Shown: positions 8,150 through 64,000 of the stretch, piece after piece
Numbering within the stretch: position 1 is the first letter of the stretch
Layout of the letters: each line of letters starts with the position of its first letter
Notes under the pieces: generated by a model
Databases searched by the model: none
What the model was told of the DNA's origin: nothing
The model's input: the letters and a program-made list of their open reading frames with translations, nothing else
NCBI GenBank assembly: GCA_951406725.2
Contig: OX597823.1
Coordinates: 70,308,001-70,372,000, forward strand
From: Octopus vulgaris
Taxonomy: Eukaryota
DNA length: 64,000 bases
Direction of reading: 5' to 3'
Translations under genes and position numbers: made by a program

Positions 8150-11100
8150 ATGACGGCTGCCCCCTCGTTATCAAGTATGGCCATTGCACAAAGCTTAACT
8201 GTTACTGGTGCTGTGATCGAATGTGACTTTTTAGCCCAGCTAAAGATCTACAATGTCTTGTACAGAATTGGCAGCTAAAACCATTACCAGTAATAGCTGG
8301 CTGTAGTTGTAACTGGGCTTCATGTACCTTTGCATGTCATTTAAGTCCTCCTGCCAAATTACACTCTCTTCCACATGCCCGACAGATATGATTAGTATGG
8401 TGTGTAACACCACCACCAGTGGCCAGGTTGTCACTCATCTGTCTCGCTTTATGACTACGAAGATGACTCTTGAGTCCAGCTTTACTGAGGCAGGGTCTTG
8501 CACAGACACTGCATGTCAGCATCATAGGAAGACCCTTCCCATCTTGAAGTGTAACAGCGATGCCCTTCCTGACAACCCTCCTTACTTTCTCATGCACAAC
8601 TCAAGATTTCTCAAAAGTAGCTGTCCCCTCATGCACAATCCTTCTCCACCTGCTACAATTAATAGCTATGCCCTCCCATGTATCAGGAGAGATGCAAGCA
8701 TCTCTTAAAGAAACCTTCAGCAAGTCCTTATACCTCTTTTTTGGTTTATGTGGGGATCGTTCTCCTTTAGCTAACTCTCCATAAAAGAGTTGTTTTGGCA
8801 TCCTTGAATCCATTATCCTGACCAGATGACCACTCCATCTGAGCCTTTGCTTTAACACAAGAACTTCTATAATTTCGCACCGAGAGCCTTCCAATATTTC
8901 AAGATCACTGATGTGGTCCTCCCACTTAATGCCGTAGATCCGTCTGAGACACATCTGATGGAAACGTTCCAGTTGTTTAAGGTGGTATCGATATGTGACC
9001 CACGTATCGCAGGCATAGAGAAGAGAAGGGAGCACACATGCCTTGTACACCCTTATCTTTGTCTTTCTGCATATGTCTCGCCAACTCCAGAGGTGCCTTT
9101 CTAGCCTTCCAAAAACATTACTTGCTCTCCTAATTCTGTATGGAATTTCATCATCCAAATTGCTATATCTATTAACAGTGCTTCCCAGGTAGACAAACTG
9201 ATCAACTACATCAAGTCGTTTACCATACACATAGATATTTGGTACACTATACTGCTTATCAGGAGCAGGTTGGTACATGACAACAGTTTTCTTGAGACTG
9301 ACTGTCAATCCTAAGGCAGTGCAAGCATCAGAGAATGCATTCAAAATGTGTTGCATATCAATCTCTGTGTGAGCTACTAGATCACAATCATCTGCATACA
9401 AAAGGCTCTTATGATAGAGGTAAATACCTTTGTTTTTGCAGCAAAGCGCCTGATATTAAATATGCTGCCAAAGGGTTGATAATGGCTATAAACACCATAT
9501 CTGCAGTTTCTGAATGCAATACAGAAAACCATCACAAAATATATGGCAAATAGGGTCGGTGTCAGAATATCCCCGTTTCACTCCATTTTGTATTGAAATG
9601 GGCTCTGACATTTTCCCTCTAGCATTAACCCTACCCTTCATGAAAAGACCTAACCAAAGCAAGGAACTTTTCAGGACACCCAAGTTTCTGGAAGACTTTC
9701 CACAATGCTTTTCTATTAATGGTATCAAAGGTATTTTGTCAGATCAACAAAAACCTGATACAAATCCAGACCCTGCTCCACGCACTTCTCCTGAAGCTGT
9801 CTAACTGAAAAGATCATATCAGCAGTGCCACGTCCCACACGAAAGCCAGATTGACTTTCTGGAAGAACACAATCTGCAACGTGTTTCAGCAGACGATCCA
9901 GAAGTACCCTGCATAAAACCTTTCCTACAACAGAAAGCAATGATATTCCCCTATAGTTACCACAATCATTCCTGTAGCCCTTTCCCTTATACAAGACCAT
10001 CATTACTGTATGCTTTCTTTGTATCAATCCCAGAACTTTCTAGCCTATATCAAACTGACTTTTTAAGGGTCGGTCAATCCTCCCCAATATCTGCAGCATT
10101 CATTTCCTCTCGTAAAGTTCTCTTCACACTATTACACCTAAGACAATCAACGTTCAGTCTTTTAGGCAGGGTAATCCCTGCAGCCCGGATTTTATGTTTC
10201 GTGACTAATTTCACTTTTGCACATACTAGGCGGTGGTCAGTCCAACACTCAGCTCCACGAAGAACATGAACACACTGCACATCTTGTTTGTCATGCATCC
10301 TAACAAGGATGTAATCCAGAATATGCCATTCTTTAGATGCAGGGTGCATTCATGTGGTCTTAAGTTTATTCTTTTGTTGAAACATGGTATTGGCAACACA
10401 CAGACGCAGCTCCTCACAGCAAAAGCATGCCATTACTATTACACTTTCCCACCCCATGCTTTCCAATTACAGTCCATGTGTTAAAATCCCAAGCCACTTT
10501 AGCATTAAAGTCACCCAGTACGATGACTTTGTCTGCCCAAGGGATATTTCTTATAATGCCCTTCAAAGCATGGTAGAAAGAAATTTTTTCATCATCAGTA
10601 TAGCACATAGTTGGACCATACACACTCACCAAGGTCACATAATTTGCTTTAACCAAAGGAATTTTCATGAACATAAGACACTCGTTAATTCCGACTGGGA
10701 ATTCTTCCAACTTGTCCACAAGAGTAGTCTTAACAGCAAATGCCACTCCTGCCTCTTCTCTAAACTCTTCATTCCTCTCTTTCCAAAAGAATGTATATTT
10801 TCCACAAGATTCTGTAAGATGACCATCTCCAGGTAATCTCGTCTCAGATAAAGCAATGATGTTAAGATCATAGCATTGAAGCTCCTTCGCAACAAGCGTA
10901 GTCCTTCATTCAGGACATTCAGAGGACTTGCGGTCAAGCAGTGTCCGTACATTCCAACAGCCAATATTCAATATTTTATTTGGTTCAATCACAGTAGCAT
11001 GATGATGGCCGGGTTCAGACTGTGATGTTCTGGAGCCCCTGCCAGGCCAGACTCTTCTGATGTGGTTCCAGAGTCCTTGCTGCCATTTATTTTTATACTG

Positions 11101-16173: not shown

Positions 16174-16736
16174 TAGCAATTCATATTCCTCATATATATA
16201 TAACCCTAACCCTATATAAATTAGCATATGTATAAATTTATATACATGTATATAGGCATATGTCTGTGAGTGTGTTTGTGTAGCTATATATAATTATAGA
16301 TAGGGGTGGGAGAGAAAGAAATACATGCTTTACAGATACATATAATTATATAAGAGAGAAGGGAACTGAAAAAGAGCAATGAGAAAAATACATACACTTA
16401 AATATTTTTATGATTATAACATAAATAATAATTACATTTAATGTGAACATTCCGTGAAAAAATGGACTCACTACAATTGCAGTTGTTATTAATTTTATCG
16501 ACACTCAATAAAATTCTTAATCATTTGTTACAATGAGGAAAGATCGATAGATCGACTGACAGACAGGCAGACAGACAGAAAGACAGCTAAATGGATATTT
16601 TGTGGAACGGAAAGATTGTCATCAATGTCACAGATGTGTGTGTGCACCTGTATGTGTGTGTGTGAGTGAGTGTGATTAAAGACATACGTACATTGATTTG
16701 ACACACGTATATTTATGATTAGTAAATAACACCTAC

Positions 16737-17241
16737 TTCCCCATTCCTTAGCAGCGCTGACAGCTTTAGTTGAAACGTCTTCGATTGCTTGCTTCGCTGC
16801 TTCAATCTTCTCATCCACTTTATCTGGTCCTTCGGCATCTTCGTCGTCACTGCTGGTCGCGGGTTCAGAAGCATCCGAATTGGCTCCACCCTTGCGTGGT
16901 TTTTTCTTGCCAGGCAAAGGAGGAATATTAGGAGCGGCTGTGTCAGAGCCACTTTGTTCTGAGGCTGATTCTGTAACGGGAGATTCGTCACCACTTGATG
17001 CACCACCACCGCCGCCGCCGCCGCCACCACCACCAGCTCCAGTTACAACCGAAGTTGCCGTCGCCTCGGGACCAGGTGCAACAGCACTAGAAGCAGTGTC
17101 GTTCGTACTGCTTTCGGGCTGTTGAACGTCTTCTTTTCCATCTTGAGTCGGTTGCGCATCGGCTGATTCCTCAGCTGGTACGTTGCTATCCGAATCCTTT
17201 TTCTGAATGGCACCCCACCAGCTCGACACGGCATTAAACAT
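16737..17241 (-). CDS. SYAP1: Synapse-associated protein 1 (SYAP1/Sap47) homologue, first coding exon
   Basis: ATG at 17241 gives MFNAVSSWWG (human MFRGLSSWLG). An acidic low-complexity linker follows, ending AVSAAKEWG (human LLHQAKDFGN), then donor GTAGGT at 16736 (phase 1). GC-rich, codon-like island. Later exons including the BSD domain were not found in the window. Confidence 0.8.
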
Positions 17242-18065
17242 GTTGGCCGTGTTTTTCAGCCTGTTTCCTACTGAAAACGACTCCACTTTGTCTGTTTGGT
17301 GGATTCTCACTTAATAGAAAAGGCAGGTAGATAATACAAAAAAGGTTCCCCGTCAGCAAAATGACGACAGGTAGACTGAGAATACGTTTGTAAACACAAC
17401 TAAATCCGATGCACACGCTTACGTCATGTATATCAGTCCTGCACTGAATGTAGCAATTGGTGGAGGAAAGAGGGGGAGAAAACAAAGCTAGCTGTAACAG
17501 CATAATGTTAAAGTCAACATATTTACAGTAGCAGTGACACCATTGTGAGGAATGTTATTTGCAATAATAATTATCATAATAATATCTTCTGTTTTTTTTT
17601 TTAACGTTACTAAATATCATCTGTACCTAAATATACATTATATTACAATTAAATTTTTTAAAGATAATGCTAAAATTATATGCTGCTGAAATGCCTAATA
17701 ATCGCAATAAACCTTTTTTTTTTTTTTTTAAGGAAAAAAAAAAAAACACGGTTCATTTTTTATTTTAATCTATATTATAATGTTTCTTTCTGTTGTCACA
17801 ATGTTTCATATTTGAAAATTTTATTACGAAGTAAGATTACATGATATTCGGGCTTTTCTTAAGCGCATTGAATGAAGCGGAGTGAATGAAACCAGGAGTA
17901 TAAATATACTCGTTTTACTGGTAGCTTGTTTCTTTACAATATTCGCTACTGACTATTTCTAGAACCGTTGTGAACGCAATTATGATAAATACAACGACTA
18001 GCTTGATCTACATGTTTTGTTTACTCTGATTATACATATATATATATAATATATAAATATATATA

Positions 18066-33850: not shown

Positions 33851-36218
33851 ATTTCCATTTTGATTTCACTTTGAGATTCTAATTGTGATTTTAATTTTGA
33901 TATTTGATTTTACTTGACTCAATAGGTCTCCTCAAGCACGGCATGTTGCCAGACAATTCAAAGGTACTTTTTAAATGAGCTGCTTACGTGACACTGGTAT
34001 AGGCTACAGTTGTGATTTCACTTTATTTGTCGGGTCTTCTCAATCGCAGCATATCTTCAGAGGTCTCAGCTTCTTATCATTGCCTCTGTGAGGCCCAATG
34101 TTCAAAGGTCATGCTTCACTATCTCATCTTGGGTCACACTCTTCCACAGGTTTCTTCCGCTGTTAGGGAGTGACACTTTTCACAAAGCTCTCTTCATTCA
34201 AACACAACACATACCTCATCTCTCTTGCACACCACATCAATGCTTCTTATGTCCAACATTTCTCTCAGGGTGCTTACACTCTGTCGTGTGTGTGCACTGA
34301 CATTATATATCCAGTGCATAATACTAGCTTCATTTCTTTCTAGCCTACATATGTTCACAACAGTCATGCTCCATGTTTCACTGCCGTGTAGCATGGCAGT
34401 ATGCACAAATGCATCATAAATTCTACCTTTCACTCCGAGTGAGAGGCCCTTTGTTACCAGCAGAGGTAGGAATTTTTTGCGGGCTATTCTTATTCTAGTG
34501 GCAACACTCTCAGCGCATCCACCCACACTACAGTCTTGGTCACCTAGGTAGCAGAAGCTATCAACTACCTCTAGTTTCTTCCCCTGGCATGTGATGGAAT
34601 CTGTTTTCTGAGCATCTTTGGTGTTTGTTGCCCCTGTGCAAAAGCTATCATCCTGGTTAACCTTTCTTTGATGTTGCTGCACCTCTTATGTGTCCAAAGC
34701 TTACACTGGGTACATCTTATGAAGTTTCTACCTACACCTCTTCTACAGATTGAGCAGGGCCATCTACCTGAAGGGATTTGTGATGTGTTCACCTTCCTAC
34801 TTACTAGGACTTTGGTTTTTGCAACATTGACTCTAAGGCCCTTCGATTCTAAACCTTGCTTCTACACTTGAAATTTCTTCTCTAGTTCTGGTAGTGATTC
34901 AGCTATGAGAGCAAGGTCATTAGCATAGAGGAGCTCCCAGGGGCAGCCTGTCTTGAATTCCTCTGTTATTGCCTGGAGGAATATGGGGAATAAGAGGGAG
35001 ATGAGGACTAATCCTTGGTGAACCCCTACTTCTACCTGGAATTCTTCACTCTACTCGTTGCCAACCCTTACCTTACTGACAGCATCCCCATACAACTCTT
35101 ATTAACCACTCATCTATCTCAAGTTTCTGCATCGTCCACCAGATAAGGAATCAGAGGACCCTGTCAAAGGCTTTCTCCAAGTCAACAAAAACCAAGTATA
35201 GGGGTTTATCTTTGGTTAGGTACTTCTCCTGCAGTTGCCTAACCAGAAAGATAGAATCAGTGGTACTTCTACCTCGCACAAAACTGAACTGCATCTCATT
35301 TAAGCAGACTCTCTCCCAAATTAGTTGGGCTATTACCCTCTCCATGACCTTCATCACCAGATCCAGCAGTTTGCCACCCCTGTAGTTATTTATAACTAAA
35401 GCATCACCATTACATTTGTAACAGTTGACTATAGTGCTGCTACGCCAGTCATTGGGAATGACTCCTTCATGAACTACCTGATTTACAATACGGGTGACAA
35501 GACCATAACCCACACCTCTAGATATTTTAAGCATCTCAGCAGTGATTCCTGATGGGCCGGTGGTTTCTCCTGACTTCATATCCTTAATTGCTTTATCTAC
35601 CAGGGTGCTATCAATTCGGGTAGCTGGTCCCTGGACTGGGTCAACCTTTGGCAGGCTCTCCTCCTCCCATTCATTCTCCACATTTAGCAGCCTTTCATAA
35701 TGGCATGCCCAGGCTTCTTTCTTTGCAGGATCATTAAAAGCAAGTGCAACATCATCCATGTGGACTCCAACCAGAAATACTTCAGTTCTTTGGTCCTCAC
35801 ATCACTGAACATTGGCAAACTTCTTCTTTTCTGCTACTTCCTTGGCTATATATACCCGTCTCCCAGCCTCCCTTCTGGCTATCTGGTACAGTTCCCTGCT
35901 ATCCCAACTCTTCCACGTTTTCTAGTCCTGTTTCTTTGCTCTAATGCCTTTGTCTACTGTATTCTTCCACCACCACGTTACCCTAGGTCTGGAAGGGACT
36001 TTGCACCAACTGCAGATTTGGTCTGTGGTCCTCAGTAAGCTGTCACTTAGTAATTTCCAGTTACCCTCTATGTCACAAGTCTGTAGCTCCTCCTCCCACT
36101 CATCAAATTTTTCAATGAGGATGTCCCTAAATCTCTGACTGTGTGAAAGGTTCTTAAGCTTCCAAATCCTTCTTTTCTGGATTGGTCTGCTTCTTGGCAT
36201 CCTTCTGGCCTCAAGTCT
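33850..36218 (-). mobile_element. 5'-truncated RTE-type LINE with a Cys/His finger after the RT core
   Basis: GPSGITAEML, NYRG, QFSFVRGRSTTDSIF, FVDLEKAFDRV, WPCSICRRGVG...CTQCKLWTHKRCS, LEVVDSFCYLGD and AMLHGSETW. Confidence 0.88.
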
Positions 36219-40836: not shown

Positions 40837-41205
40837 GTATATATATATATTTATGTATATATATGTATGTATATATATATATTTATGTATATATATTTAT
40901 GTATATATATTTAGGTATATATATATTTATGTATGTATATATATTTATGTATATATATATTTATGTATGTATATATATTTATGTATATATATATTTATGT
41001 ATATATATATTTATGTATGTATATATATTTATGTGTATATATATTTATGTATATATATATTTATGTACGTATATATATTTATGTATATATATATTTATGT
41101 ATGTATATATATTTACGTATCTATATATTTATGTATATATATTTATTTATATATATATATGTGTGTATGTATATGTGTATGTACATACATACATACATAT
41201 ATATG
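40210..41205. repeat. (TA)n/(TATTTATGTA)n microsatellite
   Basis: Direct reading. Confidence 0.95.
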
Positions 41206-41420
41206 TGTGACAATTATTCAGTTGCCATTATAAAAATCCGAGTTTCGGATGTTGGGGCAGAAAACTGCTCCGGTATCTCGTCAGTTATTAAGACAAATAA
41301 AAATGCTATGATTTTCATAGCATTTTTGTTTGTCTTAATAACTGATGAGATGCCGGAGCAGTTTTCTGCCCCAACATCCGAAACTCGGATTTTTATTATG
41401 GCAACCGAATAATTGTCACA
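41206..41420. repeat. 215 bp near-perfect palindrome whose arms carry a hammerhead-like motif
   Basis: Arms 41206-41311 and 41315-41420 with a 3 nt loop. Right arm reads taataa-CTGATGA-GATG...CATC-c-GAAAC-tcgga-ttt-ttatta. Confidence 0.85.
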
Positions 41421-41689
41421 TATTATATTTCAGATAAATTCCTCTATTTACATAATATGGAGGTCTCATTCATTCTTTTGTTCTCATACTATTACTACTA
41501 ATATATATGTATCAACCATGCTAGCATGGAAAGCAGGCGTTAAATGACGATGATGATATATGTATATGTATAGAGATTTATATATATATCTATATATATA
41601 TATAGATTTATATATTTTTTTAATATCTAGTTTCAGCTCACATGCTGGGGCACTGCCATTTGGTGTTGCTACATAATTCACAAATGCTT

Positions 41690-42365
41690 TTTAGGAAGTG
41701 ATATTTGGTGCATGAGGGAGTTTGATGCAGCTGCTCTCATCTGCACTTCCAGCCACGAAGTTGGTTCATCTGGGACAGTTGACAGTAAGAGGTCCAGCTT
41801 TATTTTGAAGACACCTACATCCACCTCATGCAGGTCTCTCAGGTCCTTTGGGAGGATATTGAAGGGATGTGGACCTCTGAAGCCCAGGTTATTGCTGTAT
41901 CTTGTTCTACATCTTGATGGCAAATTTGGAGTCCTTGGCACTATCCAGTGGTGCCCAGTTCTAGTATTTGTGTAACTCTTGATGCCAAAGTTTGGGACAA
42001 GTCCTTCCAGGATCTTCCAGATGTATATTATGACATATCTTTCTCGCCTACACTCTAAGAAATAGTCTTAATCTCTTGAGTCTTTCCCAGAAGCTTATAT
42101 GCTGCATAGAGGCTATCTTCTTTGTGTAGCTTTGTTGGATTGCCTCAAGTTCTGAGATTAATTTGACACTGGTTGGTGACCATAGCTGAGAGCAATAGTC
42201 AAAGTGGCTTAGGACAAGTGTCCTCCAGAGGACCATCATGGTTTCCTGGTCTCTTGTTCTAAAAGCTCTGAGAATCCATCTGGTCAGCCACCTGCACTTC
42301 ATTGCCAATTTAGCAACATGCACATGGAAGGATGCATCATTACTCATGTAAATGCCCAGGTCTTG
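41690..42365 (-). mobile_element. CR1/L2-group LINE 3' fragment
   Basis: DLGIYMSNDASF, LSHFDYCSQLWSP and FNILPKDLRDL; homologous to 1-420. Confidence 0.88.
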
Positions 42366-42498
42366 CACAAATACTAGAACTGGGTGCCACTGCATAGTGC
42401 CAAGGACTCCAAATTCGCCATCAAGATATAGGACAAGTCCTTTGCTGGCAATAAAAAAATGCCAACTTTTAAAAAACCGAAAATTATCCAAAAACTTA

Positions 42499-43000
42499 TA
42501 TTTAATCATATCAAAGGGAAATGGAAATTAATAGAAATTTTCATTTCTAGTGGCCTAGTGTGTAAAAATTTAGTCCAAAGACTGTGTATGCGCAGTAGAT
42601 TTTTGAAAAAATTAGGATGTATAAACAAGAGGCACATAATTGATCGCCTTGTGTTTATATATTTAATCTAAGGTGTCCTTGTTGAAAACGATTTCACCTT
42701 GCAAGTAAAAGTAATTTACTTGCTAAACTAAAATCAGAAACCAATTGGTCCAGGAAATTAGATAGTAAAATGTTTTTATTTTTTCATTTCGTTCATGTCG
42801 CATTTTATCCCCAATTTTGTGGTTATAGAACCTAGCTGTTCTTTCTAGCGTGTTGAAACCCATGAGTGGATTCCTCGTGTGTTTAAATTTACACTGTATT
42901 TTATGAGTAATACATAGTCTTTGGACTAAATTTTTACACGCTAGGCCACTGAAGGTGAATACTTCTATTAGTTTCCATTTCCCTTCGATATGATTAAATA
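42499..43000. repeat. 502 bp element with about 90 bp imperfect terminal inverted repeats
   Basis: 42499-42589 is the reverse complement of 42910-43000 (gtggcctagtgtgtaaaaatttagtccaaagact versus agtctttggactaaatttttacacgctaggccac). Confidence 0.8.
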
Positions 43001-43023
43001 CGTATATATATATATATATATAT

Positions 43024-45621
43024 AAACAAGTCAAATTGCAATAAAATAAAATTAATTATTATCGCTGGTATTTCTAGCACGAGCCATATATTATTCATAT
43101 ATCAGTACATTAAGGCGAAATATGTGCTAGAAACACAGAAGCTAGATAAATTTAGTGAAATGAAAATAAAAACATTTACTAACTCGGTTCCTCTTAGACT
43201 GCAGTTTCGTTCTTTTCAGCAATAAAGATAATTTATTTGCTCAGGGAGAATTCATCAGTAAGAGCCCTGTTGTTCTGAGATCCTAACTCACTAGAAGCAT
43301 GTGCTTCTAATGATTTGCTCTCTCTAACTAATCAGATCACTGCGCAGACTCAGAACGTCCCGACAAAACTAGGGATTTCTGGTATATTGTCTAACGCTCA
43401 AGTCAAATTGCGATAAAATAAAATTAATTATTATCGCTGGTATTTCTAGCACGAGCCATATATTATTCATATATCAGTACATTAAGGCGAAATATGTGCT
43501 AGAAACACAGAAGCTAGATAAATTTAGTGGAATGAAAATAAAAACATTTACTAACTCGGTTCCTCTTAGACTGCAGATTCGTTCTTTTCAGCAATAAAGA
43601 TAATTTATTTGCTCAGGGAGAATTCATCGGTAAGAGCCCTGTTGTTCTGAGATCCTAACTCACTAGAAGCATGTGCTTCTAATGATTTGCTCTCTCTAAC
43701 TAATCAGATCACTGCGCAGACTCAGAACGTCCCGACAAAACTAGGGATTTCTGGTATATTGTCTAACGCTCAAAATTTATTGAGAAATATGTAAACAAGT
43801 CAAATTGCGATAAAATAAAATTAATTATTATCGCTGGTATTTCTAGCACGAGCCATATATTATTCATATATCAGTACATTAAGGCGAAATATGTGCTAGA
43901 AACACAGAAGCTAGATAAATTTAGTGAAATGAAAATAAAAACATTTACTAACTCGGTTCCTCTTAGACTGCAGATTCGTTCTTTTCAGCAATAAAGATAA
44001 TTTATTTGCTCAGGGAGAATTCATCGGTAAGAGCCCTGTTGTTCTGAGATCCTAACTCACTAGAAGCATGTGCTTCTAATGATTTGCTCTCTCTAACTAA
44101 TCAGATCACTGCGCAGACTCAGAACGTCCCGACAAAACTAGGGATTTCTGGTATATTGTCTAACGCTCAAAATTTATCGAGAAATATGTAAACAAGTCAA
44201 ATTGCGATAAAATAAAATTAATTATTATCGCTGGTATTTCTAGCACGAGCCATATATTATTCATATATCAGTACATTGAGGCGAAATATGTGCTAGAAAC
44301 ACAGAAGCTAGATAAATTTAGTGAAATGAAAATAAAAACATTTACTAACTCGGTTCCTCTTAGACTGCAGTTTCGTTCTTTTCAGCAATAAATATAATTT
44401 ATTTGCTCAGGGAGAATTCATCGGTAAGAGCCCTGTTGTTCTGAGATCCTAACTCACTAGAAGCATGTGCTTCTAATGATTTGCTCTCTAACTAATCAGA
44501 TCACTGCGCAGACTCAGAATGTCCCGACAAAACTAGGGATTTCTGGTATATTGTCTAACGCTCAAAATTTATCGAGAAATATGTAAACAAGTCAAATTGC
44601 GATAAAATAAAATAAATTAATATCGCTGGTATTTCTAGCACGAGCCATATATTATTCATATATCAGTACATTAAGGCGAAATATGTGCTAGAAACACAGA
44701 AGCTAGATAAATTTAGTGAAATGAAAATAAAAACATTTACTCACTCGGTTCCTCTTAGACTACAGTTTCGTTCTTTTCAGCAATAAAGATAATTTATTTG
44801 CTCAGGGAGAATTCATCGGTAAGAGCCCTGTTGTTCTGAGATCCTAACTCACTAGAAGCATGTGCTTCTAATGATTTGCTCTCTCTAACTAATCAGATCA
44901 CTGCGCAGACTCAGAACGTCCCGACAAAACTAGGGATTTCTGGTATATTGTCTAACGCTCAAAATTTATCGAGAAATATGTAAACAAGTCAAATTGCGAT
45001 AAAATAAAATTAATTATTATCGCTGGTATTTCTAGCATGAGCCATATATTATCCATATTCAGTACATTAAGGCGAAATATGTGCTAGAAACACAGAAGCT
45101 AGATAAATTTAGTGGAATGAAAATAAAAACATTTACTAACTCGGTTCCTCTTAGACTGCAGTTTCGTTCTTTTCAGCAATAAAGATAATTTATTTGCTCA
45201 GGGAGAATTCATCGGTAAGAGCCCTGTTGTTCTGAGATCCTAACTCACTAGAAGCATGTGCTTCTAATGATTTGCTCTCTCTAACTAATCAGATCACTGC
45301 GCAGACTCAGAACGTCCCGACAAAACTAGGGATTTCTGGTATATTGTCTAACGCTCAAAATTTATCGAGAAATATGTAAACAAGTCAAATTGCGATAAAA
45401 TAAAATTAATTATTATCGCTGGTATTTCTAGCACGAGCCATATATTATTCATATATCAGTACATTAAGGCGAAATATGTGCTAGAAACACAGAAGCTAGA
45501 TAAATTTAGTGAAATGAAAATAAAAACATTTACTAACTCGGTTCCTCTTAGACTGCAGTTTCGTTCTTTTCAGCAATAAAGATAATTTATTTGCTCAGGG
45601 AGAATTCATCGGTAAGAGCCC
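43024..45621 (-). repeat. Tandem array of about 397 bp units (6.6 copies), one hammerhead motif per unit; retrozyme-like
   Basis: Unit starts (aagtcaaattgc) at 43028, 43400, 43797, 44194, 44589, 44986 and 45382. Units are near-identical and flanked on both sides by (TA)n. Confidence 0.95.
43191..43264 (-). ncRNA. Type-I hammerhead ribozyme (unit 1 of the 397 bp array)
   Basis: Minus strand reads CTCTTA-CTGATGA-aTTCT...AGAAc-GAAA-CTGCAG-TC-TAAGAG. Stem I is a perfect 6 bp and the triplet is GUC. Predicted cut between 43197 and 43196. Confidence 0.8.
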
Positions 45622-45759: not shown

Positions 45760-47560
45760 AGAGCCTCTAATATGTGGCACTTGGTGAAGAATGGAGTTTG
45801 ATGTAGCTACCCTCATTTGCACCTATTGCCGTGAGGTAGACTCATCTAGGACTTTTGACAGGAAGAGGTCCAGCCTTGATTTTAAAATGCCTACATCTAC
45901 TTTATGCAGGTTCCTCAAGCTCTTTGGAAGAATATTAAAAAGCTGTGTGCTCCTGAAACTCTGGCTGTTGCAGTAACTGGTCCTGAAGTGCGATGGCATT
46001 GCCGGGATCTTTGGCACTGTGCAGTGTCAACCCGTTCTGGCATTGGTGTAACTTTCAATGCCAAAATTTGGCACAGTTCTTTCCAGGATCTTTCAGATGT
46101 TTATTACTGCATACCTCTACTATCTTCGCTCCAGAGAGTAGAGTCTTAGCAGTTTCAGCCTTTCCCAGTAGCTGAGCTGTTGCAAAGAGACGATCATCTT
46201 TGTGAAGCTTCACTGGATTGCTTCAAGGTCCGCTGTTAATTTTACATTGTTGGGTGATCATAGCTGGGTGCAGTAATCCAGGTGGCTGAGGACGAATATT
46301 CTCCATAGGACCATCATGGTTTCCTTATCTCTGGTTCTGAATGTTCTCAGGATCCATCCATCCAGTTGTCTGCACTTTGTCGCCATCCTGGTAATGTGCA
46401 CTTGGAAAGAGGTATCATCACTCATGTCGAAACCCGGGTCCCTCACTGATTAACACTCTGGAATTGAAATTCCCTGTGGATCAGTGTACCCTGTAAGTTT
46501 CATATTCAGTTTTGGGTACTGGTAGTGCATGGCTTGGAATTTTTGAGCATTAAACTGCATATTATTATCCTCAGCCCATCTGTAAATTGAATCCAATTCC
46601 TGCTGCAGATGTGCAACATAGATGAGATTCTGTATTTTCTGCAAGACTTTCATATTGTCTGTGTAGCAAGCAAGGGTGGCTATCTGGGCAGTTGAGGGCA
46701 TATCTGAGAGGGCCGCTATGAAAAGCAGTGGTCCCAAGACAGTGCCCTGTGGAACACCGCTCACTATTTGTATTTTCATTGAGGTGGCTCCATTGGCCAC
46801 TACTGCCTGACTTCTATCTTTCAGAAAGTCATGTAACCACTCTCCAAGTTTTCCAGCTATGCCGAGATCATGCAGTTTGTGGCATATCATACCATGATCT
46901 ACTTTATCAAAAGCTTTTGCAAAGTCAAGGTATATTATGAGCACATTTGAGTTTTTTAGTAACTGCCTGAACACCCAGTCATAATGTTGCAAGAGCTGGA
47001 TCAGGCAGCTCCTACCTGGTCAAAAGCCATGCTGGGTCTCACTCAGCAAGTTATTTTCTTCAAGGAATGCGATTAGTTTCCCTCTGGTCAGAGAGATAGG
47101 CCTATATGTTTTGGCATCTGCTCTGCTTCCCCCTTTATGGATTGGGCATATTAATCCCTCCTTCAGCTTCCTTGGTAGCTTGCCATTTGCAAGAAAGCTC
47201 TGGAAGAGAATCTGGATGGGTTTTGCCAGGGCACACACGATTTGAGGAGGATTGCTAGGAAACCATCAGGACCAGCACTTGAGTTTGCGTCCACCTCATC
47301 TATGGCTAGTAGTACATTTTCTTCACTAATGTCGATGTATTCCATCATAACTACCCTGCTGGTTATAGGTGAGGTGGCAAAGAAATCCACTGGTTTGTTC
47401 ACTTGTCTGCATTCCAATGGGGTGGTAAAGACACTTTTGAACTGGTCATTCAGTACCTCACTGATCCTGGTTGGACTATCTGTGAGGGAGCCTTTCTTTT
47501 GGAAGAGGGCTCCTATCTTGCAGTGTACTGAGACTGTTTCTTTCGCTTAATAAAAGAAGG
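45760..47560 (-). mobile_element. CR1/L2-group LINE, decayed RT
   Basis: SSAGPDG, YRPISLT, YLDFAKAFDKVDH, GVPQGTVLGP and LSHLDYCTQL. Confidence 0.9.
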
Positions 47561-48015: not shown

Positions 48016-48574
48016 AATATATATATATATATATATATATAAGGAAAAATAAGTTCAAAAATGAACAATTCAAACTTTTTGAGAGGTCCAAAAAGAGAGA
48101 AAGAATGATTTCTAATAAAGATTCATCATATTCATCATATTCAAAACAGTCGGAGCAAGTAATAAGAATATGAAAATAGTAGTTGAAAAATATCGTTATA
48201 GGCATAAATATACCATAAACAATTATAGAAAAATGGAGGAGAAAAAGGTGTTGCATCAGAATTAGATTTAATACAAAATAGGATTCAATACATATGCGCA
48301 TTTCAAAGGACAATGCAAATATCTAAGAAAAAATTATAACCATACACTCTCAGAGTGGTTGGCATCAGGAAGGGCATCCAGCTGTAGAAACTCTCCCAGA
48401 CCAGATTGGAGCCTGGTGCAGCCACTGGCTCTCCAGACCTCAGTCAAACTGTCCAACCCATGCTAGCATAGAAAACGGACGTTAAACGATGATGATACAC
48501 ATATAAATACATATAACGAGAATAAGAAAACCCATTTTATACAATTCGATATATGTAACTATTACCAGTCTATT

Positions 48575-51232
48575 ACGGAGGATCTACTGGTGAAAGTAAT
48601 TGTTTGCCGAGAAATTTGTGGCTATAACCCCTTTAGAAAAATACATTATTTTCACAGCTAGGACAACCTTAATTTCTTTTAAAAACAAACTCTGGACCCG
48701 TAATGATATTGACGAAAATTTCAACGTTACTATGGGTTCCTCTGATTCAGCCCAGATCATGGTCCTGGTGGGCCTGTTCCTCCTTTCAAAAATTAAGGAG
48801 GAATTCCTAAACATCAGGGGAGGTTTGTATAGGGACGATGCTCTATTTGCTATTTCAGGTTGTACATTACCAACAATCTATAGAATGGAGAAAAACTTAA
48901 ATTTTTTAAGGTATATAATTTGGAGATCTTGTCTGAAAATACCACTAAAACTGTTAACTTTCTAGATGTAACATTAAATTTGGATAATAGGTTATTTTAT
49001 CCCTATTATAAGCCAGATAAAAACCATCCAATATATCCACACATTATCTAACCATCCCCAAAGTATCATCAACGGAGTGATTAGGGGAATTTCGATTAAA
49101 TGATCTAACTTGTCAGCAAACCAAATAGTTTCTAATAATGTCACACTGTTTTTAACACAGCTTTGAGGAATAGTGGTTTTAGTGAGGATATATATATCCT
49201 ATTCAAATACTGATTAGGTAAATGTTTTCCAAACCTAGCTGAATCCAATATTGATATCTCATTTGTAAATAACCATTGGGAGATTTTCTAGGTATCCTAG
49301 CATGTATAATAATAATAATGATAATAATAATAACAAAAAGCAGCAAACTGGAAGTAAGACTGAGAAAACGGGAAATTATATGGTTTAACCCCTACCACTT
49401 TTTCCCTGTAGGTTAAAAATCTCCCTAAGATGTTTTTTTAATATCATCAATAAGAATTTCCCTGTGGGCCATAAACACCGTTCTATCTTTAATAAATCCT
49501 GTCTAAAACTTGCATACTCATCTATGCCTAATTTAGGATCGATAATCACATGGAACAATAGATTCAAGCTTGGGAATAATGGGAATAAGGGTAGCCCCAA
49601 TACGAGTAGGATTAATAACAGATAAAGAACGCACAGGGATGAGCAACTGAAATAAAGCCTGCAATTGTCAGAACTGCAATTTATGTCCATTAGAGGCTTC
49701 CTGTCTAAGGAAAAATGTCATATACAAGACTGAGGTCATAATTGCCCATCAACCTAGGAAAGTATACATAGGAACTACCACAGATTTCAAAACAAGATAT
49801 AGAGAAAACATCAGCTCTTTCTTGAACCCAGGAACAAAAAATGCCACTGCGCTGGCTACATATATTAACAAACTAAAAATGCAAGATAAGGAATTTAGAT
49901 TAGACTAGTTGATCATAACGGAAACCACCCCATATAAAAAGTATACTGGAAAGAGTAAGTTATGTACGAAGGAAGCAATAGGTATACTTCATACAGACAA
50001 GAAAATTTTAATTAATAAAATATCAGACCGTATAATTGCATGTAGGCATAAATATTTAGCTACGTTTAAGTTTTTTAAAAAGTAGAAAGGATAGAATCTG
50101 ATCTTATGAACTTTGACTTACCTTAAGAAAATAATAATTTCTTCCACTTTGGCTAGATTTGATCAACCTAAAAGTTTAAGGGTAAATTTTTTATACATCT
50201 TAGTAATTCACAGGCTTAGTGTCACATTCAAACCTATTAACCTTATATATATATATAAGTTGTAAGTTAACGATCATTGTAAATTGTAAATCACAAATAT
50301 CAGTGAATTTTTAGACTGTTCCCACTAACATTTTGCATATATGGATTCCCCTTACTTTAATTGTTTACCATTTTTAATTATCAGCAATCCGACTATCTTA
50401 TATAGTTAACCAGGTTTAACCCAAATTTGAATCCTCATTTTATTTTATTTCTACAAATATTTTAAATTTCATTTTCATTTGCACAAATGTTTTACTTCAC
50501 AACTTTTTCCACTTCACAAAGCCTTTCTATATTATTGCAAACTTCTTTTTAAAATACTATAACATTTTTTTACAAAAATATAAGATTACTGAATATGACT
50601 TCAAGTTTTGTAAGTAGGAGATATTTTAAGCTTTCTCAATGTTTAAACTATTTTAATTGATTTATTTGTACCTCTGATGAGAGAAATGCGACTATTTGTT
50701 TCGGCTGGAAAACTCACCCTATACAAACACATTCCTCGAAATGATTGTAAGGTTTTGTAATACTGCTTTTCTTTGGATTGTAATAATCGAGCGCTTGAAA
50801 CCTGACATCTTGATGTATTTTTTTATGTATATTGTATTCCCATGATAATGGAACTTGACCTATAAAATCTGTCATCCGCTTTGATTTTGTTATATTTCAC
50901 TCATATTGAGCACTAACAAGGTGTGTTGCAACAAAGGTTCTCCTCTTGTCTTATTATTCAATATCTGCTCAAACTGAGCACTTCTTGCAGCTTTAACTTA
51001 TGGAGCAACAATTTCCAGGGCTGTTCGCAAAAAATATCCCAATACCAACAAGGGGACTATACATGGATTTATTATTACAAAATAATTAGTGAGTTCATCA
51101 GAAGAATGAGATGGAAAGCATACTTTTACGATGATAAGAAAGGAAGGCTAATTAATAATAATAGAAATTTTAACAACTGCAACTTAAAGACCTATAGATA
51201 TCCACCCCACAACCCCACACTTGAGAACTTTG
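48575..51232 (+). mobile_element. Decayed Penelope-like element (Naiad-type): 5'-truncated RT + GIY-YIG, 3' region with HHR, then start of a tandem copy
   Basis: RT remnants FNVTMGSSDSAQ, GGLYRDD, VNFLDVTLNL, SNHP, IIWFNP and LAYSSMPNL. Endonuclease CNCQNCNLCPLEASCLRKNVIYK...VYIGTT...CRHK, stop at 50085. Downstream N-terminus from ATG 51000: KNIPIP...EFIRRMRWKAYF. Confidence 0.85.
50670..50753 (+). ncRNA. Hammerhead ribozyme in the Penelope pLTR
   Basis: acct-CTGATGA-GAGaaatg...cattcCTC-GAAA-tgattG-TA-aggt; stem I is acct/aggt. Confidence 0.7.
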
Positions 51233-51376: not shown

Positions 51377-51421
<45 letters not shown>

Positions 51422-51425
<4 letters not shown>

Positions 51426-54400
51426 CAACAATTGAGGGTAAAATTAATTAATTATTAATCAATTTCACCAAGTGTTCAGTATGCAAAGGGACCATTTAAG
51501 GCGAATTCAAATTATTACATTATATAAAAGGGCTTAGTAAAATAAATTACTTTGCCGCATACTGAACTCATTAGAAATAGCAGCCAAAAAACTTTTTAAA
51601 ACTATTTCTAATACTTAAAGAAAATCTCTCTCATATAGTGTTTGCTTAATTCAACTCACAAAAGTTTGGGGGTAAGGACATCAAAAAATCAAATGCAAAG
51701 GTTATTTGAGAACGTACGTTTCAAGATTAGTCAAAACGACACTTCTATCATCAGCTCAGAAACTCCTTGGTTTGGATTTGGAAACACTGAAAGTAAGAAC
51801 ATACCCTTTCGGCTTCTCATCGCCTTCGAAGATCTGCTCGTAACTAACAGTGCCAACAAACTCAAATAAGCAAGCGAAGAATTTCTGTTCTCCCCTTTCC
51901 ACCAGCGTGGGTTAAAATCATCAAACACTATGCTTATTTCGGTAAAATCCGAAGCATTAATTAGAGGGAGATTAATTATAATTTCAACAATTGAGGGTAA
52001 AATTAATTAATTATTAATCAATTTCATCAAGTGTTCAGTATGCAAAGGGACCATTTAAGGCGAATTCAAATTATTACATTATATAAAAGGGCTTAGTAAA
52101 ATAAATTACTTTGCCGCATACTGAACTCATTAGAAATAGCAGCCAAAAAACTTTTTTAAAACTATTTCTAATACTTAAAGAAAATCTCTCTCATATAGTG
52201 TTTGCTTAATTCAACTCACAAAAGTTTGGGGGTAAGGACATCAAAAAATCAAATGCAAAGGTTATTTGAGAACGTACGTTTCAAGATTAGTCAAAACGAC
52301 ACTTCTATCATCAGCTCAGAAACTCCTTGGTTTGGATTTGGAAACACTGAAAGTAAGAACATACCCTTTCGGCTTCTCATCGCCTTCAAAGATCTGCTCG
52401 TAACTAACAGTGCCAACAAACTCAAATAAGCAAGCGAAGAATTTCTGTTCTCCCCTTTCCACCAGCGTGGGTTAAAATCATCAAACACTATGCTTATTTC
52501 GGTAAAATCCGAAGCATTAATTAGAGGGAGATTAATTATAATTTCAACAATTGAGGGTAAAATTAATTAATTATTAATCAATTTCACCAAGTGTTCAGTA
52601 TGCAAAGGGACCATTTAAGGCGAATTCAAATTATTACATTATATAAAAGGGCTTAGTAAAATAAATTACTTTGCCGCATACTGAACTCATTAGAAATAGC
52701 AGCCAAAAAACTTTTTTAAAACTATTTCTAATACTTAAAGAAAATCTCTCTCATATAGTGTTTGCTTAATTCAACTCACAAAAGTTTGGGGGTAAGGACA
52801 TCAAAAAATCAAATGCAAAGGTTATTTGAGAACGTACGTTTCAAGATTAGTCAAAACGACACTTCTATCATCAGCTCAGAAACTCCTTGGTTTGGATTTG
52901 GAAACACTGAAAGTAAGAACATACCCTTTCGGCTTCTCATCGCCTTCGAAGATCTGCTCGTAACTAACAGTGCCAACAAACTCAAATAAGCAAGCGAAGA
53001 ATTTCTGTTCTCCCCTTTCCACCAGCGTGGGTTAAAATCATCAAACACTATGCTTATTTCGGTAAAATCCGAAGCATTAATTAGAGGGAGATTAATTATA
53101 ATTTCAACAATTGAGGGTAAAATTAATTAATTATTAATCAATTTCATCAAGTGTTCAGTATGCAAAGGGACCATTTAAGGCGAATTCAAATTATTACATT
53201 ATATAAAAGGGCTTAGTAAAATAAATTACTTTGCCGCATACTGAACTCATTAGAAATAGCAGCCAAAAAACTTTTTTAAAACTATTTCTAATACTTAAAG
53301 AAAATCTCTCTCATATAGTGTTTGCTTAATTCAACTCACAAAAGTTTGGGGGTAAGGACATCAAAAAATCAAATGCAAAGGTTATTTGAGAACGTACGTT
53401 TCAAGATTAGTCAAAACGACACTTCTATCATCAGCTCAGAAACTCCTTGGTTTGGATTTGGAAACACTGAAAGTAAGAACATACCCTTTCGGCTTCTCAT
53501 CGCCTTCAAAGATCTGCTCGTAACTAACAGTGCCAACAAACTCAAATAAGCAAGCGAAGAATTTCTGTTCTCCCCTTTCCACCAGCGTGGGTTAAAATCA
53601 TCAAACACTATGCTTATTTCGGTAAAATCCGAAGCATTAATTAGAGGGAGATTAATTATAATTTCAACAATTGAGGGTAAAATTAATTAATTATTAATCA
53701 ATTTCACCAAGTGTTCAGTATGCAAAGGGACCATTTAAGGCGAATTCAAATTATTACATTATATAAAAGGGCTTAGTAAAATAAATTACTTTGCCGCATA
53801 CTGAACTCATTAGAAATAGCAGCCAAAAAACTTTTTTAAAACTATTTCTAATACTTAAAGAAAATCTCTCTCATATAGTGTTTGCTTAATTCAACTCACA
53901 AAAGTTTGGGGGTAAGGACATCAAAAAATCAAATGCAAAGGTTATTTGAGAACGTACGTTTCAAGATTAGTCAAAACGACACTTCTATCATCAGCTCAGA
54001 AACTCCTTGGTTTGGATTTGGAAACACTGAAAGTAAGAACATACCCTTTCGGCTTCTCATCGCCTTCGAAGATCTGCTCGTAACTAACAGTGCCAACAAA
54101 CTCAAATAAGCAAGCGAAGAATTTCTGTTCTCCCCTTTCCACCAGCGTGGGTTAAAATCATCAAACACTATGCTTATTTCGGTAAAATCCGAAGCATTAA
54201 TTAGAGGGAGATTAATTATAATTTCAACAATTGAGGGTAAAATTAATTAATTATTAATCAATTTCACCAAGTGTTCAGTATGCAAAGGGACCATTTAAGG
54301 CGAATTCAAATTATTACATTATATAAAAGGGCTTAGTAAAATAAATTACTTTGCCGCATACTGAACTCATTAGAAATAGCAGCCAAAAAACTTTTTTAAA

Positions 54401-55618
54401 ACTATTTCTAATACTTAAAGAAAATCTCTCTCATATAGTGTTTGCTTAATTCAACTCACAAAAGTTTGGGGTAAGGACATCAAAAAATCAAATGCAAAGG
54501 TTATTTGAGAACGTACGTTTCAAGATTAGTCAAAACGACACTTCTATCATCAGCTCAGAAACTCCTTGGTTTGGATTTGGAAACACTGAAAGTAAGAACA
54601 TACCCTTTCGGCTTCTCATCGCCTTCGAAGATCTGCTCGTAACTAACAGTGCCAACAAACTCAAATAAGCAAGCGAAGAATTTCTGTTCTCCCCTTTCCA
54701 CCAGCGTGGGTTAAAATCATCAAACACTATGCTTATTTCGGTAAAATCCGAAGCATTAATTAGAGGGAGATTAATTATAATTTCAACAATTGAGGGTAAA
54801 ATTAATTAATTATTAATCAATTTCACCAAGTGTTCAGTATGCAAAGGGACCATTTAAGGCGAATTCAAATTATTACATTATATAAAAGGGCTTAGTAAAA
54901 TAAATTACTTTGCCGCATACTGAACTCATTAGAAATAGCAGCCAAAAAACTTTTTTAAAACTATTTCTAATACTTAAAGAAAATCTCTCTCATATAGTGT
55001 TTGCTTAATTCAACTCACAAAAGTTTGGGGGTAAGGACATCAAAAAATCAAATGCAAAGGTTATTTGAGAACGTACGTTTCAAGATTAGTCAAAACGACA
55101 CTTCTATCATCAGCTCAGAAACTCCTTGGTTTGGATTTGGAAACACTGAAAGTAAGAACATACCCTTTCGGCTTCTCATCGCCTTCGAAGATCTGCTCGT
55201 AACTAACAGTGCCAACAAACTCAAATAAGCAAGCGAAGAATTTCTGTTCTCCCCTTTCCACCAGCGTGGGTTAAAATCATCAAACACTATGCTTATTTCG
55301 GTAAAATCCGAAGCATTAATTAGAGGGAGATTAATTATAATTTCAACAATTGAGGGTAAAATTAATTAATTATTAATCAATTTCACCAAGTGTTCAGTAT
55401 GCAAAGGGACCATTTAAGGCGAATTCAAATTATTACATTATATAAAAGGGCTTAGTAAAATAAATTACTTTGCCGCATACTGAACTCATTAGAAATAGCA
55501 GCCAAAAACTTTTTTAAAACTATTTCTAATACTTAAAGAAAATCTCTCTCATATAGTGTTTGCTTAATTCAACTCACAAAAGTTTGGGGGTAAGGACATC
55601 AAAAAATCAAATGCAAAG
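51422..55618 (-). repeat. Tandem array of about 560 bp units (7.5 copies), one hammerhead motif per unit; retrozyme-like
   Basis: Unit starts (atttcaacaattgag) at 51422, 51981, 52541, 53101, 53661, 54221, 54780 and 55340. Units differ at only a few positions. Confidence 0.95.
51707..51758 (-). ncRNA. Type-I hammerhead motif (unit 1 of the 560 bp array; repeated in each full unit)
   Basis: Minus strand reads TGAG-CTGATGA-tagaagtgtcgttttgactaatctt-GAAA-CGTACG-TT-CTCA. Stem III is palindromic (ACGTACGT), the triplet is GUU, and stem II is imperfect. Confidence 0.7.
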
Positions 55619-56052
55619 TTCGGATTTTACCGAAATAAGCATAGTGTTTGATGATTTTAACCCACGCTGGTGGAAAGGGGAGAACAGAAATTCTTCGCTT
55701 GCTTATTTGAGTTTGTTGGCACTGTTAGTTACGAGCAGATCTTCGAAGGCGATGAGAAGCCGAAAGGGTATGTTCTTACTTTCAGTGTTTCCAAATCCAA
55801 ACCAAGGAGTTTCTGAGCTGATGATAGAAGTGTCGTTTTGACTAATCTTGAAACGTACGTTCTCAAATAACCTTTGCATTTGATTTTTTGATGTCCTTAC
55901 CCCCAAACTTTTGTGAGTTGAATTAAGCAAACACTATATGAGAGAGATTTTCTTTAAGTATTAGAAATAGTTTTAAAAAAGTTTTTTGGCTGCTATTTCT
56001 AATGAGTTCAGTATGCGGCAAAGTAATTTATTTTACTAAGCCCTTTTATATA

Positions 56053-56054
<2 letters not shown>
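55619..56054 (+). repeat. Inverted partial copy (436 bp) of the 560 bp unit; HHR motif at 55814-55865 on the plus strand
   Basis: ttcggattttaccgaaataagc...cccttttatataat is the reverse complement of the unit; ORF 55703-55930(-) equals ORF 51642-51869(+). Confidence 0.95.
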
Positions 56055-56086
<32 letters not shown>

Positions 56087-56144
56087 GTATTAAAAAGTGG
56101 TTGTGGGATTAATACGTAGGATAGAGATCATGATATATATATAT

Positions 56145-61317: not shown

Positions 61318-61352
61318 ATTTCTGATGAAGAGCTCCACTCGAAACATGAAAT
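61318..61352 (+). ncRNA. Minimal hammerhead motif with degenerate cleavage site
   Basis: attt-CTGATGA-A-GAG-ctcca-CTC-GAAAC-ATG-aaat; same repeat family as 5460. Confidence 0.45.
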
Positions 61353-62430: not shown

Positions 62431-63563
62431 ATTTTGGTTACCTTCCCACCACCAAATGTGGGGAAAATATCTAATCTATGAAAAAAAGTTATATATTTTA
62501 TTAGAGGCTGAAACTTCTTCAGTCATTACCTAGGGTGTTACATTTCCAATTATTCAGTTGGTGAATGACAAACAGAATGACAATACCTAATGAAAAATAG
62601 GGGAAAAAAACTTATTGAAATATTATTAGTTAACAGCACAGAAATGCATTTTATCTATTTAATTCCATACACATAACTATTTTCAATCACTTCAGTACCA
62701 TGTACAAGAAACAGATAAGTATGGGAAATAACTTTTGTTGACTATATCAAATTCATTCTGACTTATATCAAATTTACATTTGCTACTTTTGCATTTTGGG
62801 ATTGGAAAGAAAATTATCTTTATGATCTTTAAGTGTAAAGTATGGATTCAAGTGCCACTAAAAATTCTACTTTACCATCTATTATTAGGCTGGTAGTTAA
62901 TTTTTTTTTTTTTTCCAAATTAATAACATGGAGTTGTTTTTGATATGTGTTAGTATTAATATCTGAAAGGAATCTATAGGATATGTAGTTATCACTTTCA
63001 TGTAAATTTTTAGATATGTTGAAAGAAACCTGGGTGTTTTTGACTGTTAAACCGTAAGGGTCGACAAAATGATATCCTTTTGATCTTTCTAAAACAGGAT
63101 TCTAGTCACTGCTCTGCTATAAATGCCCAACTTCAAGATTCTCAGAAATGAAACTGCCCCCCCCCTACACACTTCCTGAATAAGTTTTCAGCTATAGTTA
63201 AATCTATGCTCTGCTACTAATGGAGTTGTTGGGTTATCATTAATATCTTTTCCCTTCTATAGGAATATCATTAAAATCCTTTTCCTTCTGTATACCACTA
63301 CAATTTATTCCCTTCTCTGGGGATTATACTGCAGTGGTTCCGTCATTGCCTGGCTTAGGCTTATGCAAGGGTTTCCACTTAAAGGACTTATCAATTATGC
63401 TGTGTGGCATGAGTGCAAAATTGTACCACTGCTTGGGACCTTCATACTTTGAATTGATTTTTTTTGTTTTTTTTTTTGTTAGAATTAAAGTGTAATGCCT
63501 GTATCAAATTATGGACTATCATGATTTTTATATGATACCTTTTATTTTGTCTTCTCTTTGCAG

Positions 63564-63833
63564 AATTACCATCTGACTTCATTACATTATTTTCATCTAC
63601 TGGAAGAGACAGGTATTTCCATTTCCATCGGTCAGCTACGCTGGTACACAACATGTTTCAATCGAGTATTTATCCGTCTCGGTCAGTTCAAGCCTTTCTT
63701 CTTGCATATGTGGTTTTCATTTGGTGTTGCTTTTGGCTTGATTTCCATGGTGATATCTCTGTTTGTTCTCACTCTGATGGTTTTCAACACTTTAAGTCAA
63801 CAGCCTGTCGACCAGCAAGTATTAACACCAGTG
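63564..63833 (+). CDS. MBTPS2: Site-2 protease, exon 2
   Basis: Polypyrimidine tract plus CAG at 63561-63563. 90 codons NYHLTSLHYFHLLEETGISISIGQLRWYTTCFNRVF...WFSFGVAFGLISM...QQVLTPV (human [20 protein letters not shown]...WFNFGMVFGVIAM). Donor GTATGT at 63834; in frame with exon 1. Confidence 0.92.
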
Positions 63834-64000
63834 GTATGTTGTTTTGATTTATCAGATGATGGAAGTGGTTGTAGTGACATTGGTTTTTGTTGGTGTTGTT
63901 TAATCTTAAAATAATCTTCAGTCTTATAGGTTTGAGTATGAAAATTATTTAACAATTTTTTAAAATGATATGAAATATTTTCTAGCTTTCTTGGCTCATT

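Follow-up and report, generated by a model that had tools for sequence, protein, structure and literature searches.

A hammerhead-bearing 560 bp repeat of Octopus vulgaris laid out in the manner of Penelope-like element insertions

How arrays of ribozyme-bearing repeats arise in animal genomes is debated, with the copying of circular RNA, the copying of multimeric RNA and local DNA amplification all under discussion, as is the role of the hammerhead in transposition of the type performed by Penelope-like elements (PLEs). Both questions are raised by a locus in a 64,000 nt stretch of the Octopus vulgaris genome (assembly GCA_951406725.2, contig OX597823.1, positions 70,308,001 to 70,372,000; hereafter the window), where a 560 bp unit carrying a hammerhead motif is repeated in tandem from position 51422 to 55618. 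This array is probably a young insertion of an abundant Octopus repeat, likely a retrozyme of the type lacking long terminal repeats (non-LTR retrozyme), mobilised in trans by a PLE.

The array comprises seven full head-to-tail units and a 279 bp partial unit. These start at 51422, 51981, 52541, 53101, 53661, 54221, 54780 and 55340, giving spacings of 559, 560, 560, 560, 560, 559 and 560 bp. All are 99.3-100% identical to unit 2 (99.5-100% for the seven full units), and just four alignment columns vary among the full units: two gaps in homopolymers and two substitutions. The latter, at unit positions 47 and 408, co-occur in units 2 and 4, such that the haplotypes run A B A B A A A. The six frames of the unit contain no long open reading frame (ORF), the longest stop-free run being 91 codons, and no PLE motif was seen in them. 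Nor does the array have terminal direct repeats beyond the units themselves, a long terminal repeat (LTR), a primer binding site, a polypurine tract or a tRNA gene. A sigma-70 promoter scan, which applies a bacterial model irrelevant to an animal, remained at chance level.

The initial annotation of this sequence described 7.5 almost identical units, each with a hammerhead, in an array ending 10 nt from the predicted cleavage site. The motif is indeed the same in all seven full units, and the distance is correct, as the first base after the cut is unit position 290 and the array ends at unit position 280; however, the half unit lacks the motif, because it ends 10 nt short of where the cut is predicted. 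Furthermore, the insertion continues past 55618, which is an inversion junction; beyond it, an inverted copy with an eighth hammerhead, overlooked previously, extends from 55619 to 56057. Read on the hammerhead strand, the 5' ends of both arms meet centrally, whilst their 3' ends point outward, each running into a (TA)n tract. No exact microhomology is found at the junction, and the start of the inverted arm coincides with the base of a predicted 5-bp hairpin. The joined positions (280 and 533) are offset rather than mirror images, which counts against a fold-back artefact.

The hammerhead is a 52-nt type I motif, UGAG-CUGAUGA-(25 nt)-GAAA-CGUACG-UU-CUCA, letter-identical in the seven full units. 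The conserved core (CUGANGA, GAAA and NUH) and three helices are present: in copy 7, a helix I of 4 bp is followed by the CUGAUGA core, a helix II with U·U at its base, GAAA and a palindromic helix III. A strict type I descriptor (the core, helices I and II with minimum lengths of 4 and 3 bp respectively, and a short helix III), composed after the motif had been seen, matched none of 20,000 dinucleotide shuffles of the unit; 15 of the 20,000 matched when the limit to a short helix III was dropped, and 129 of the 20,000 when only the core and helix I were demanded.

Table 1. Features of the insertion (window coordinates; unit positions as in the text)
Feature	Position	Strand	Basis or remark
(AT)21 microsatellite, left insertion target	51382..51423	.	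adjoins the direct arm where, on the hammerhead strand, it has its 3' end
Seven full 560-bp units (559-560 bp)	51422..55339	-	alignment; GC 0.336
Type I hammerhead motif, copy 1	51707..51758	-	descriptor and alignment
Identical motif copies	52267-52318, 52827-52878, 53387-53438, 53947-53998, 54506-54557	-	descriptor and alignment
Type I hammerhead motif, copy 7	55066..55117	-	predicted cut after GUU, between 55070 and 55069
Eighth unit, 5'-truncated (unit positions 1-280, 279 bp)	55340..55618	-	last base 10 nt 3' of where the hammerhead is predicted to cut
Head-to-head (5'-5') inversion junction	55618..55619	.	joins unit position 280 to position 533 of the reversed copy
Inverted arm, 439 bp (unit positions 533 to 95), haplotype A, 99.5% identical	55619..56057	+	3' end enters (TA)n
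Eighth hammerhead motif, intact, in inverted arm	55814..55865	+	descriptor and alignment
(TA)n/(TATG)n microsatellite, right insertion target	56047..56090	.	adjoins the outer end of the inverted arm

The repeat is an abundant, diverged family occupying many loci. The 560-bp unit was present in 20 of the 24 public sequencing runs listed, and these 20 span ten studies and four organism labels; none of them is recorded as RNA, although eight were guessed to be so. Mapping onto one unit used four of the 24 (X1, X5, X6 and X17) and contigs only, from which strand, ends, circles and expression level are not readable. The DNA runs X1 and X5, which carry different organism labels, gave 4898 and 1946 mapping contigs respectively, with 1821 (37%) and 644 (33%) at 99% identity or above; most of the X1 depth differs from the window locus at ten of the 40 variant rows listed (of 76). 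Hence, as the family is diverged yet the units and inverted arm are 99.3-100% alike, both arms derive from one template lineage. Head-to-tail unit joints were seen in all four runs mapped, the ends of two X17 contigs run into (TA)n no more than 4 nt from a 3' end used at this locus, and two joints between opposite strands were listed, from X17 and X5, at unit positions 75/178 and 105/141. No piece among those listed bridges the predicted cut with 31 letters on each side. A drop in depth 5' of the cut was set aside, depth being a per-contig sum that dips elsewhere too.

Eight of the 40 variant rows listed fall in the motif, and none of these touches any of the 18 positions that make up the core and helix III (P=0.024); the listed changes lie at N7 or unpaired bases, keep pairing through G·U, or close helix II, whilst the insertions and deletions listed are found in loops. 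The base of helix II closes as a U-A pair in 10.6% (X1) and 13.4% (X5) of family depth. A CpG beside the palindrome is altered in 59% and 85% of family depth, whereas the two CpGs of the palindrome itself are unaltered in the variant rows listed.

Outside these runs, a scan of metagenomes for the core pattern retrieved 31 loci, none of which resembled the unit by BLAST at E<=1e-3. Nine of them (L006, L007, L008, L012, L016, L017, L021, L023 and L026) have the same helix III palindrome, a GUU site and complementary flanks, and are apparently unrelated type I hammerheads. An exact 21-mer from the unit had no match in viral contigs and none in prokaryotic genomes.

The layout of the insertion is that of known PLE copies. 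Their published hallmarks are partial tandems, an inverted 5'-truncated copy beside the 5' end and a bias towards (TA)n (PMC8557442, PMC3846280); the head-to-head arms and (TA)n ends at this locus match this signature, and hence we read it as a PLE-type insertion. PLE hammerheads on opposite strands, 100-700 bp apart, have been reported (PMC4209133), and retrozymes are described as related to the pseudo-LTRs (pLTRs) of PLEs and argued to be non-autonomous PLE derivatives (bioRxiv 10.64898/2026.07.22.740005). The purified PLE protein of Anolis cuts and extends both strands of AT-rich DNA, starting reverse transcription at two internal sites and using uncut RNA as its main template (PMC11167929). 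Such behaviour would explain why the two arms have different 3' ends and why each crosses an intact hammerhead. Penelope expansions have been reported in octopus (PMC8967140), and octopus PLEs with a (TA)n preference are catalogued as Naiad_Ovul, Naiad_Obim, Naiad_Omin and Hydra-1_Obim (PMC8557442 supplement), although the Naiads of cephalopods are said to have been inactive for a long time (PMC8557442).

We infer the following course of events. A donor array would be transcribed into RNA longer than one unit, and, the hammerheads being weak and predicted to cut mainly as dimers, most of it would stay uncut. By analogy with the Anolis enzyme, a protein with reverse transcriptase (RT) and GIY-YIG domains would then nick both strands of a (TA)n tract, each nick priming complementary DNA (cDNA) synthesis at internal AU-rich sites of the RNA, around unit positions 1 and 95. 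If the route was through RNA, each arm was copied across at least one intact hammerhead. The halt of the direct arm, 10 nt short of the cut and within outer helix I, would reflect either an RNA end made by the ribozyme or stalling at the hammerhead fold, and the cDNA ends of the two arms would finally have been joined at 55618/55619. At least 1.5 units must have been inserted at once, since a shorter piece cannot regenerate whole units; later local duplication may account for part of the 7.5 copies. The self-priming model for inverted junctions (Arkhipova, PMC3846280) may account for this layout by another route. We rejected twin priming on one cleaved RNA, as it would place the second start 375 nt past a cut end, or entail a 186-nt overlap.

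Several results weigh against this interpretation. Rfam gave no match of any kind at gathering score in the window, and the nine matches at E<=10 within 55300-56100 include no hammerhead or other credible family. Besides going unrecognised by Rfam, the motif departs from canonical type I hammerheads in lacking a 6-bp helix I and the G10.1-C11.1 pair, which is described as highly conserved among PLE hammerheads (PMC4209133); helix II here has U·U at its base. The conservation test covers 40 of the 76 variant rows. No target-site duplication is readable within the microsatellite at the insertion. Within the window, no autonomous PLE had sequence in common with the unit, and a decayed PLE there, described below, has no BLAST match to it. 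Just one of nine predicted Xenopus retrozyme dimers was cleaved in vitro (bioRxiv 10.64898/2026.07.22.740005).

The predicted folds speak on both sides. With the core held unpaired, the 4-bp helix I is extended past an internal loop by a further 3 and 5 bp and helix II consists of two 3-bp stems, whilst two copies of the motif are predicted to form a double hammerhead in which the palindrome provides an 8-bp helix III. However, the hammerhead fold lies above the minimum in both the monomer (-8.3 vs -12.4 kcal/mol) and the dimer (-28.4 vs -33.4 kcal/mol), the alternatives that are lower by 4-5 kcal/mol burying GAAA; unconstrained folds of the motif did not form the hammerhead and were no better than shuffles (z 1.3 and 0.6). 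Given this difference in energy, activity is plausible but probably weak and dimer-dependent on these models. The initial annotation had cautioned that stem II is weak and closes with U-U. The U·U is there, but the caution is softened by HHR_Amex2 of axolotl, a motif with the same U·U at the helix II base and a helix III of 2 bp, which nonetheless cleaves 22% as a monomer and more as a dimer (PMC7229834), as well as by the U-A closure found in part of the family.

Other elements in the window resemble this locus in one respect or another. A second hammerhead array, at 43024-45621 between (TA)n tracts, has an unrelated 397-bp unit in around 6.6 copies that are approximately 98-99% alike. Its minus-strand type I motif has a different palindromic helix III and a GUC site; the CUGAUGA core is found in the first unit only, the other six having C at position 4, and this first unit is 25 nt short, in a tail-like manner. 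The two array families can be aligned in register over the last 90 nt at their 3' ends (54780-54863 vs 43793-43888), with an AU-rich hairpin and a common 10-mer; the alignment scores 34, against 23.6 +/- 4.0 for shuffles, 36 of 2000 of which reach it. This likeness of sequence gives a weak hint of a common RT recognition signal. At 41203-41425, near (AT)n-rich tracts, lies a fold-back element of two 108-bp arms, 94% alike and arranged head-to-head around a central palindrome, each with a hammerhead-like core that fails the type I descriptor; this is the head-to-head layout in miniature.

A decayed Penelope-like relic, the presence of which accords with a PLE route, spans 48430-50082 on the plus strand, with RT fragments, a Cys-rich linker and, C-terminally, a GIY-YIG-like domain interrupted by stops and frameshifts; a hammerhead core-like motif at 50674 is listed with it. 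Neither Pfam nor homologue searches matched it at threshold, the only lead being GIY-YIG at 0.93, with 12% of cluster members annotated. We take its motifs to be Neptune-like, a clade assignment confirmed by no tool. Isolated relics of hammerhead cores occur at 61322 (plus strand) and 56843 (minus strand).

Explanations of the array differ on the origin of the 5' end at 55618. The initial annotation proposed cDNA copied from a ribozyme-cleaved multimer or circle, and an RNA template of more than unit length is indeed most likely, whilst a 5' end made by the cut is less likely. If copying of the direct arm had run out at the 5' end of a linear multimer cleaved by its hammerhead, the ribozyme would set the 5' boundary of new copies; this is compatible with PLE-type insertion, differing only in what stopped reverse transcription at 55618, and we regard it as a possible but somewhat unlikely cause. 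The 10 nt distance speaks for it: by chance, at least one of the two 5' ends would lie within 10 nt 3' of the cut with probability 0.035, or 0.06 if the 397-bp array is counted. One of 11 joint rows listed is that of an X1 contig with a joint of unspecified kind at 55066, 3 nt from the cut, and a weak, dimer-dependent ribozyme would yield multimers with one cut end. However, the inverted arm has its 5' end well away from the cut, at position 533, and that of the 397-bp array is the 5' edge of helix I, around 60 nt before its own cut. The initial annotation had suggested checking whether other loci truncate at the same point; this second array and the two opposite-strand joints from other samples all break elsewhere. 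None of the 24 loose ends listed (of 257) falls at 55059-55069. As the stop lies inside the predicted outer helix I, stalling explains it equally well, and Anolis hammerhead mutants are described as inserting normally, with no reads ending at the cut (PMC11167929). Hence there is only a hint that the ribozyme cut produced this end.

Rolling-circle reverse transcription of a 560-nt circular monomer seems unlikely to us. It would yield near-identical units from a diverse family, as well as a cut site crossed intact by both arms, and retrozyme RNAs in circular form have been recorded from coral, mussel and axolotl (PMC7229834); moreover, the monomer from cut to cut is predicted to be strongly self-paired as a circle (62% paired, -146.1 kcal/mol vs -109.8 +/- 5.4 for shuffles, z -6.8, none of 60 as low). 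The circular origin initially suggested nevertheless sits poorly with the substitutions common to units 2 and 4 only, which one monomeric circle would not give twice; the ABAB order requires a dimeric circle or later duplication, and a closed circle, having no 5' end, offers no reason for a stop near the cut. That same order is consistent with duplication of a two-unit block, as would be expected if an initially short insertion, of 1.5 units or more together with the inverted arm, had later expanded as a DNA satellite, with the hammerhead an inactive relic of a PLE terminal repeat. The active fold lying 4-5 kcal/mol above the minimum would fit such a relic, as would Xenopus, where eight of nine dimers were uncleaved and local amplification is favoured (bioRxiv 10.64898/2026.07.22.740005). 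We doubt this account, as the core and helix III are unchanged in the variant rows listed despite the two CpGs of the palindrome, and the first insertion still requires a template of more than unit length. That the copy number or inversion is an artefact of assembly appears very improbable: three single-base homopolymer gaps are present and no contig listed spans a unit, but the junction is offset, unique sequence flanks both outer ends, and the family shows inversions and (TA)n ends in other samples too.

The remainder of the window contains host sequence and other decayed elements. An exon at 16528-17310 on the minus strand encodes part of a SYAP1-like BSD-domain protein, 98% identical to its counterpart in Octopus vulgaris and 94% to that in O. 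bimaculoides. The plus-strand frame at 63525-63914 we presume to resemble the N terminus of the site-2 protease MBTPS2, although Pfam found nothing there. Decayed fragments of reverse transcriptase and endonuclease from long interspersed nuclear elements (LINEs) lie at 8601-10905, 34194-35801, 41678-42527 and 46450-47546, two of them with RVT_1.

This family, abundant and with young, near-identical arrays, has value as a test bed for how retrozyme arrays form. A bolder proposal, which we hold to be rather improbable, is that of an active octopus retrozyme whose insertions capture the complete PLE reaction: reverse transcription would be primed from each strand of (TA)n, at two fixed internal RNA sites approximately 94 nt apart, and a dimer-dependent hammerhead cut would determine how far towards the 5' side the multimer is copied. 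If true, it would provide genomic evidence that hammerhead cleavage shapes PLE-type insertions, contrary to the Anolis result in vitro, and the AU-rich 3' signal common with the 397-bp family would be a recognition element.

Neither the retrozyme class, nor the 560-bp length, nor the link to PLEs is new. A literature search found no description of a retrozyme from octopus or any cephalopod within its scope, which lay outside Repbase, Dfam, the supplements of bioRxiv 10.64898/2026.07.22.740005 and PMC7229834 and one file of PMC4209133; within that reach, this repeat adds cephalopods to the hosts of retrozymes. Satellite 2 of newt and axolotl, with its double-hammerhead RNAs, is likewise a tandem satellite whose unstable palindromic helix III is predicted to be active as a dimer, but its unit is described as around 330-350 bp rather than 560 bp (PMC7229834, PMC4209133), and the octopus repeat, which is from a mollusc, occurs as short arrays that are dispersed and have PLE-type ends. 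The PLEs of the EN+ clades (Neptune, Poseidon, Hydra and Naiad) and their non-autonomous derivatives have in common with this locus a body in partial tandem, 5' truncation, a head-to-head inverted and 5'-truncated copy, insertion into (TA)n leaving no readable target-site duplication, and two different 3' ends per insertion, in a tail-like manner. Also common to both are hammerheads with a short helix I and small palindromic helix III, and opposite-strand hammerheads approximately 700 bp apart. In contrast to autonomous PLEs, the unit has neither an RT nor a GIY-YIG ORF, and its two 3' ends are approximately 94 nt apart, compared with a tail of 30-40 bp.

The closest likeness in organisation is to the metazoan non-LTR retrozymes, which are head-to-tail non-coding repeats with one type I hammerhead per full unit (seven consecutive here), low GC (below 45-50% in theirs), high copy number and a self-paired monomer (predicted here). 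The initial annotation considered the unit longer than is typical, and it does exceed the 150-450 bp given for the non-LTR retrozymes of 2020 (Cervera & de la Pena, PMC7229834), although it falls within the 51-972 bp of the more recent set, in which seven to eight units are typical (mostly up to seven; bioRxiv 10.64898/2026.07.22.740005). The octopus motif differs in that helix I reaches an internal loop after 4 bp, rather than the canonical 6, in its GUU site and in lacking G10.1-C11.1, whilst the retrozyme HHR_Amex2 of axolotl is, by its description, alike in having a 2-bp helix III with a tetraloop and U·U at the base of helix II (PMC7229834). Neither an inverted arm nor (TA)n targeting is described for retrozymes in the literature consulted, yet both are present here. 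Hence, known from its sequence alone, the repeat has the testable sequence characteristics of a metazoan non-LTR retrozyme, and the locus places PLE hallmarks, namely a head-to-head arm, a (TA)n target and two 3' start sites, on such an element.

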